In this document: piece after piece, positions 35,818 to 36,297 of the stretch | Layout of the letters: each line of letters begins with the position of its first letter | How positions within the stretch are numbered: position 1 is the stretch's first letter | Source of the DNA: Escherichia phage vB_Eco-B1.1 | Sequence record: ON871820 | Reading direction: 5' to 3' (one strand) | Length of the DNA: 64,000 bases | Position numbers and translations under genes: made by a program | Notes under the pieces: generated by a model | Database searches by the model: none | What the model saw: only the letters and a program-made list of their open reading frames with translations | What the model was told of the DNA's origin: nothing

Positions 35818-36038
35818 TGGCAAAGATAATTATTGAAGGTTCTGAAGATGTGCTAAATGCTTTCGCCGAATGGTTTAGTAATTCAGGCGAACAGCAATTT
35901 AACGAAGCATGGAACATGGGTGATATTAATGGAATTTATCCTACTACAGAAATTTCTGTTCAGGGATATGGCATTCATGAACCTATTCGTTTAGTTGAAT
36001 ACGATTTATGTACTGGTGAGGAAGTCAAATATGATTGA
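35817..36038 (+). CDS. hypothetical protein
   Basis: 73 aa; ATG overlaps the upstream stop. Confidence 0.5.
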   Translation: MAKIIIEGSEDVLNAFAEWFSNSGEQQFNEAWNMGDINGIYPTTEISVQGYGIHEPIRLVEYDLCTGEEVKYD

Positions 36039-36297
36039 AGATATTAAAGGTTATAAGCCACATACCGACGAAAAAATCGATAAAGTAAATGCTATTAAAG
36101 ACGCTGAAGTTCGTTTAGGACTTATCTTTGATGCTTTATACGATGAATTTTGGGAAGCATTTGATAGCTGTGAAGATGATGAACTTGCGAAGAATTACGC
36201 CGAAAGCCTCGATCAGTTAACTATTGCTAAAACGAAACTCAAAGAAGCCAGTATGTGGGCTTGTCGTGCAGTGTTCCAACCAGAGGAAAAATACTAA
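36031..36297 (+). CDS. hypothetical small helical protein (positional candidate for T4 vs.4/Acb2)
   Basis: 88 aa starting [15 protein letters not shown]; sits between the grcA-like gene and regB; identity to Acb2 not verified. Confidence 0.45.

Follow-up and report, generated by a model that had tools for sequence, protein, structure and literature searches.

A short gene in the window, as we term the whole 64,000-nt stretch of Escherichia phage vB_Eco-B1.1 analysed here, is almost certainly an orthologue of T4 vs.4 (acb2), and by analogy with T4 its 88-residue product would act as a sponge for cGAMP. The window gene corresponds to T4 vs.4 in its sequence, in the fold predicted for its product, in its functional residues and in its gene neighbourhood, and from the 93% identity of the two proteins the window protein would also be expected to form hexamers, to bind ligand with comparable affinity and to counter CBASS in vivo. 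The protein is already known, its structure having been solved and its mechanism published, such that its finding here is an ordinary one. The coordinates of this gene and of other features discussed below are collected in Table 1.

Table 1. Positions in the window of acb2, its associated features and other loci mentioned in the text.
Feature	Position	Strand	Remarks
acb2 (vs.4) CDS, predicted anti-CBASS cyclic-dinucleotide sponge	36031..36297	+	93.2% to T4 Vs.4/7UQ2 over full length; PF24729; PHROG 717; top Foldseek match 7UQ2
Shine-Dalgarno-like GAGGAAG, 6 nt 5' of the acb2 ATG, within the 3' end of vs.5	36018..36024	+	Read from sequence
Tyr8 codon, purine-stacking residue in T4 Vs.4	36052..36054	+	Conserved; invariant in 11 homologues
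Diverged patch, hairpin tip (codons 37-59)	36141..36207	+	Contains 15 of the 21 nt at which acb2 differs from T4: L44F, N46S, C50D, F52L and 7 synonymous codons
Phe82 codon, partner of Tyr8 in base stacking within the dinucleotide pocket	36274..36276	+	Conserved; invariant in 11 homologues
vs.5	35817..36038	+	73 aa
vs.3 orthologue, next downstream of acb2 and last of the closely packed genes vs.6-vs.5-vs.4-vs.3	36297..36575	+	98.9% identical to T4 Vs.3
acb1 (T4 gene 57B) orthologue, cyclic-oligonucleotide phosphodiesterase	25201..25659	+	99.3% to T4 57B; Pfam PF23474, 202.7 bits
vs.8 orthologue	34471..35121	+	96% to T4
denV remnant	33381..33506	+	74% identity to DenV residues 96-137
Internal-protein locus	33050..34416	+	Unlike T4
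Internal-protein-locus ORFs (MKTYSEF..., MKMYQEF..., MKTYQEF...)	~33065..33346, 33516..33776, 33838..34416	+
Cys-rich 70-aa ORF and 57-aa ORF, tk.3-tk.2 interval	38653..38865 and 38862..39035	+
tk.4 orthologue	37986..38453	+	Macro domain, Pfam PF01661, 25 bits
Second lysozyme-like match	20636..21133	-	43% identical to T4 e

Sequence and structural similarity to T4 Vs.4

Alignment of the window protein with T4 Vs.4 (NP_049728) revealed 82 identical residues out of 88 (93.2%) over the full length, the six substitutions, written from T4 to the window, being E13D, G17D, L44F, N46S, C50D and F52L. Of the 267 bases of the gene, 21 were found to differ, affecting 11 codons synonymously and six non-synonymously. 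A search against all PDB chain sequences retrieved 7UQ2 (‘Vs.4’) with an E value of 5.3e-52, residues 1-88 aligning with 2-89, followed by the Acb2 of PaMx33 (‘p26’; 8IXZ, 8H2J) with an E value of 0.0095. The protein also matched Pfam PF24729 (Acb2/Tad1 hairpin; Acb2_Tad1_hairpin) with a score of 72.3 bits against a gathering cutoff of 27, the entire 58-position profile being covered, as well as PHROG 717 (E 3.1e-32), the group by which Jenson et al. delimited the Vs.4 family (PMC10097602). NCBIfam held no model matching the acb2 product, Acb1, vs.5 or vs.3, which is uninformative either way. The exact 88-aa sequence was absent from a collection of 15 billion proteins when searched by exact look-up, and the nearest sequences differed from it at residue 17 only (G17D).

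An AlphaFold2 single-sequence model of the monomer consisted of two long antiparallel helices, spanning residues 13-45 and 50-81, with short N- and C-terminal extensions and a mean pLDDT of 87, in keeping with a hairpin protomer and with the small helical protein that had been described at this position. When this model was compared with the PDB using Foldseek, E values below 0.001 were obtained for chains of 7UQ2 only (E 1e-9, TM 0.75); the next matches were PaMx33 Acb2 (8H2X/8H2J; probability 1.00, TM 0.73) and then generic helical hairpins. Residues 1-8 of the model, including Y8, were of low confidence, which is to be expected of a monomer should the pocket arise solely where two protomers meet. 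The original prediction had proposed Acb2 from gene position and had been staked on similarity to that protein; such similarity is present across the full length, and the proposal is further supported by PF24729 and by the retention of all contact and interface residues that were tested.

Gene neighbourhood and start codon of acb2

Translations of the T4 genes annotated from rI.-1 through e.2 were placed on the window by tblastn. The resulting order, by start of match, was e (32580), ipIII (33838), vs.8 (34471), vs.7 (35118), vs.6 (35455), vs.5 (35817), vs.4 (36031), vs.3 (36297), regB (36635), vs.1 (37104), vs (37642), tk.4 (37986), tk (39404) and rI (40253), with which T4 is collinear from e to rI.-1 according to its own annotation. 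The window gene therefore lies in the T4 vs.4 position, between vs.5 and vs.3, after the grcA-like vs.6 and before regB, with all of these genes on a single strand. The products of vs.6 and regB matched Pfam Gly_radical (a GrcA-like glycyl-radical protein) and REGB_T4, respectively, and no Pfam or NCBIfam family was matched by vs.3. It had been by counting reading frames from the grcA-like gene to regB that the vs.4 position was originally assigned, and the count was correct. Matches of 95-99% identity to a 2.7-kb stretch around acb2 were obtained in 499 phage records, the majority from Tequatrovirus-like phages of Escherichia and Shigella, the closest being vB_Eco_EL at 99.0%; the source phage is a close, Tequatrovirus-like relative of T4.

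The acb2 reading frame, as read from the sequence, runs from an ATG at 36031 to a TAA at 36295-36297 on the forward strand and encodes 88 residues plus the stop, exactly as had been predicted. The frame is real, a chance ORF at this place being ruled out by homology, and the ATG at 36031 is its true start, because the GAGGAAG motif lies upstream, the start agrees with that annotated in T4, and the N-termini of the homologues align. The N-terminus was aligned in 11 homologues, four of which carried one extra residue before it, and the crystallised T4 protein likewise comprises residues 1-88. A TTG codon at 35995, which would give a product of 100 aa and is the longest form in a mechanical list of ORFs, was rejected in favour of this ATG.

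The 3' end of vs.5, with its stop codon (36036..36038), and the start of acb2 share 8 nt, ATGATTGA, an overlap likewise annotated in vB_Eco_EL, slur08 and RPN226, whilst the acb2 TAA and the vs.3 ATG overlap as TAATG. The overlapping stops and starts are what suggests that vs.7 through vs.3 may be co-transcribed. Between 34300 and 37200, eight promoter-like sites were found against 9.0 expected, giving no usable evidence of a dedicated promoter; terminator-like sites numbered two, where 1.5 would be expected, and both lay on the strand opposite to acb2.

The arrangement upstream of acb2 differs from that of the T4 reference, in which vs.5 is annotated with 58 aa and is separated from vs.4 by a gap of 36 nt, whereas the window vs.5 encodes 73 aa and overlaps acb2. 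The longer vs.5 is also found in vB_Eco_EL, slur08 and RPN226. In the T4 reference, a deletion of 1 nt near codon 17 (ttcgCcga to ttcg-cga) shifts the frame and leads to an early stop, and it looks as though the frameshifted form of vs.5 is that of the T4 reference.

Conservation of functional residues and proposed mechanism

T4 Vs.4 binds 3',3'-cGAMP with a Kd of ~30 nM (Jenson et al. 2023, PMC10097602), and its hexamer carries three molecules of cGAMP, each between two protomers (PMC10097602). In the crystal structure (PDB 7UQ2), Y8 and F82 stack on the bases of cGAMP, to which hydrogen bonds or salt bridges are formed from Y8, H11, K23 and R79 (PMC10097602). Inhibition of the phospholipase CapV fails in Y8 and F82 mutants, is abolished by the substitutions S74N, T12I and A77I recovered in a genetic screen, and is likewise stopped by engineered mutations at L29, A66, A73 and A77, whilst F33A destabilises the hexamer (PMC10097602). 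The T4 gene has also been demonstrated to protect the phage against CBASS in vivo (PMC10097602, PMC12657218).

At all of 13 such positions, including L60, the window protein was found to be identical to T4: the stacking residues Y8 and F82 and the polar residues H11, K23, S74 and R79 of the pocket are retained, as are L29, F33, A66, A73 and A77 of the interface and the helix cap T12. An alignment was constructed from the window protein and those of T4, slur08, RPN226, Phapecoctavirus TSP7_1, Mosigvirus a20, VR7, Bp7, KP15, EcS1 and Cronobacter phage leB, the last nine taken from the tblastn ranking; the set spanned 51-99% identity, six Straboviridae genera and a Phapecoctavirus. Ten residues (Y8, H11, K23, L29, A66, A73, S74, A77, R79 and F82) were invariant in these 11 homologues; T12, itself nearly invariant, and F33 were the only pocket, interface or helix-cap residues to vary. 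A C-terminal stretch of 13 residues was almost fixed. All six substitutions relative to T4 fell within variable columns, mostly at the hairpin tip, and column 17 is occupied by D or E in leB, KP15 and EcS1, with an Asp of PaMx33 Acb2 standing opposite D17 in the HMMER alignment.

If the window protein behaves as in the T4 crystal, its two-helix hairpin protomers would interlock as a hexamer, in which three pockets, situated between pairs of protomers, would each clamp one molecule of 3',3'-cGAMP or of a related cyclic dinucleotide. Stacking on the bases would be provided by Y8 and F82, and the phosphates and riboses would be held by H11, K23, S74 and R79. The signal would be sequestered stoichiometrically and not degraded, so that CBASS effectors such as CapV would be kept inactive and the phage could complete its replication. 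Cyclic trinucleotides would not be expected to bind, as is the case with T4 Acb2.

Ligand range

The Acb2 proteins of PaMx33 and JBD67 bind cyclic trinucleotides in a second pocket involving R67 and T74 (Cao et al., PMC10312549). T4 Acb2, which has D61 and T68 at the corresponding positions, binds cyclic dinucleotides and fails to bind cA3 and cAAG, and the substitution D61R does not restore binding of cA3 (PMC10312549). The window protein carries D61 and T68 in place of the R67/T74 pair found at the three-fold axis of the broad-spectrum PaMx33/JBD67 type, and is accordingly assigned to the T4 type, which binds dinucleotides only; trinucleotide binding was rejected on account of D61 and the T4 precedent (PMC10312549). 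Other Acb2 homologues, such as Acb2_43, bind the Thoeris signal 3'cADPR by means of extra terminal beta-strands (PMC12393519). Strands of this kind were not predicted in the AlphaFold model of the window protein, and binding of 3'cADPR was likewise rejected.

A diverged allele at the hairpin tip

The nucleotide identity of acb2 to T4 was 92.1%, as against 98-99% for vs.6, vs.3, regB, vs.1 and vs. This divergence was concentrated at the hairpin tip, the 100-nt bin 36136-36235 being 85% identical to T4 and the next bin 100%, with flanking bins mostly at 98-100%; it was the most diverged ungapped 100-nt bin in the 4.2 kb aligned to T4. Apart from residue 17, the window allele was found in slur08 and in many other phages, and a collection of phage records contained 181 at 95-99% protein identity and 298 at 90-95%, the latter band including T4. 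D17 was absent from every other Tequatrovirus allele examined. In our view, the loop, which is exposed at the surface and unconstrained, exists in two alleles that have probably been exchanged by recombination amongst the Tequatroviruses. Positive selection was disfavoured as the origin of the patch, given that the excess of synonymous changes and the occurrence of the allele in many phages favour allele exchange.

Could the tip patch (residues 44-52), together with G17D, instead have shifted the ligand range of an Acb2 orthologue, for example by weakening the binding of 2',3'-c-di-AMP, the Panoptes decoy, or by gaining 3'cADPR or cA3? Acb2 homologues are known to differ in the ligands they bind (PMC10312549, PMC12393519), Panoptes has been proposed to select for retuned sponges (PMC12657218), and the local divergence from T4 and the private D17 could be taken as traces of such a change. 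However, none of the six substitutions lies at a residue reported for ligand contact or the hexamer interface, seven codons of the patch changed synonymously against four non-synonymously, which resembles an exchanged allele and not adaptive change, and the allele is common to slur08 and many phages when residue 17 is left aside, with acidic residues at column 17 in leB, KP15, EcS1 and PaMx33. The particular ligands fare no better, in that the 3'cADPR-binding strands of Acb2_43 are missing from the predicted model and the cA3 site has D61 where an Arg would be needed, a defect that D61R did not repair in T4 (PMC10312549). A shifted range is consequently considered very unlikely. The related notion that F44, S46, D50, L52 and D17 constitute a natural retuning, such that the sponge rejects 2',3'-c-di-AMP and keeps 3',3'-cGAMP, or presents an altered surface to a host sensor, is similarly given little credence.

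A decayed or inactive acb2 allele, kept by position only as proposed for T2 and PaMx41, is less probable still, to the point of being barely worth entertaining. Natural loss-of-function alleles selected by Panoptes do occur, T2 having been reported with an inactivating mutation in the pocket of acb2 (PMC12657218), and decay is visible nearby in the window in the denV remnant and the in-frame stop of vs.8. The T2 precedent therefore means that orthology alone is no guarantee of function, though the pocket of the window protein is intact, as are its interface residues. The frame is of full length with neither frameshift nor premature stop, synonymous changes outnumber non-synonymous ones relative to T4, and the ribosome-binding site has been preserved together with the overlaps of start and stop codons, all of which stand against decay and leave a functional sponge of the T4 type as the preferred reading.

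A companion anti-CBASS gene and predicted consequences

The window also encodes an acb1 orthologue, which is unlinked to acb2, lying ~10 kb apart and outside the acb2 locus. Like Acb2, Acb1 removes the CBASS signal, but it is a signal-degrading enzyme of unrelated fold, whereas Acb2 is a stoichiometric binder (PMC10312549). With both genes present, the phage would therefore possess two-pronged anti-CBASS equipment as in T4, and it is predicted to evade CBASS of the cGAMP type and of other dinucleotide types.

Removal of the Panoptes decoy dinucleotide by a sponge sets the system off, making an intact dinucleotide pocket the trigger (PMC12657218). Nearly all T4 escapers of Panoptes are acb2 loss-of-function mutants, and both Y8A and F82C abolish triggering (PMC12657218). 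As the acb2 pocket is intact in the window, the phage is predicted to be sensitive to Panoptes. The value of these results lies mainly in annotation, in that the name acb2 (vs.4) can be assigned with confidence and transferred to the records of orthologues; among the matches listed, none was named Acb2, most being labelled ‘hypothetical protein’ or ‘Phage protein’ and a few ‘vs.4’. The two-allele pattern at the hairpin tip of Tequatroviruses constitutes a minor lead for the study of sponge evolution.

Other features of the window

Several further differences from T4 were noted in the region. At 34570-34572, the T4 codon TAT is replaced in the vs.8 orthologue by an in-frame TAG, beside which there is a deletion of 9 nt, such that the frame is split into pieces of 33 aa and 179 aa, the second restarting at an ATG at 34582; the same TAG is present in vB_Eco_EL. 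Of endonuclease V, approximately the last 42 residues were detected as a denV remnant, and full-length denV was not found anywhere within the window. This arrangement occurs at 99% identity in Phaginator, G8 and BF15, and in other relatives the match is broken in two by an intact endonuclease V. Judging from the sequence, the phage is probably devoid of this UV-repair enzyme.

The internal-protein locus contains three ORFs with capsid-targeting-like N-termini, and only the last of these corresponds to ipIII (94%); ipII was not detected in the window by tblastn of T4 proteins. In records with the same locus, these ORFs are labelled internal head proteins. Two small ORFs absent from T4 are located between tk.3 and tk.2, in the same place as similar-sized ORFs of vB_Eco_EL. 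The tk.4 orthologue, which encodes a Macro domain, is itself locally diverged, its bin 38036..38135 being 89% identical to T4 compared with 98-100% around it. Finally, the second lysozyme-like match is ordinary: from where it lies with respect to genes 1 and 57A/57B, it most likely belongs to gp5, the baseplate hub protein, as its lysozyme domain.

Comparison with known systems

T4 Vs.4/Acb2 resembles the window protein in its length of 88 aa, in its slot between vs.5 and vs.3, in its pocket and interface residues and in D61/T68. They differ at six residues, of which E13D and G17D belong to the initial turns of helix 1 and the other four to the hairpin tip. The Tequatrovirus slur08 encodes a still closer relative (CUL02674.1, ‘hypothetical protein’), which is identical at 87 of 88 residues, with the same flanking genes and overlaps, and which has G17 as opposed to the D17 of the window.

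The Acb2 of Pseudomonas phage PaMx33 (gp26; PDB 8H2J, 8H2X, 8IXZ; Huiting et al. 2023, Cao et al.) belongs to the same family and shares its fold (TM 0.73), its pocket residues Y11 and K26 aligning with Y8 and K23 of the window protein, yet the two are only ~25% identical. It possesses a second pocket, to which R67/T74 and a helix kink contribute and in which cA3 and cAAG are bound at nanomolar affinity (PMC10312549), whereas in the window protein D61 stands where PaMx33 Acb2 has its Arg. More distantly, Tad1 (Thoeris anti-defence 1) carries the Pfam Acb2/Tad1 hairpin domain, as does the window protein. PDB sequence and fold searches with the window protein yielded no direct similarity to Tad1 structures. 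Tad1 is a hexameric sponge for immune nucleotides, its primary ligands being gcADPR molecules, unlike those of T4-type Acb2.
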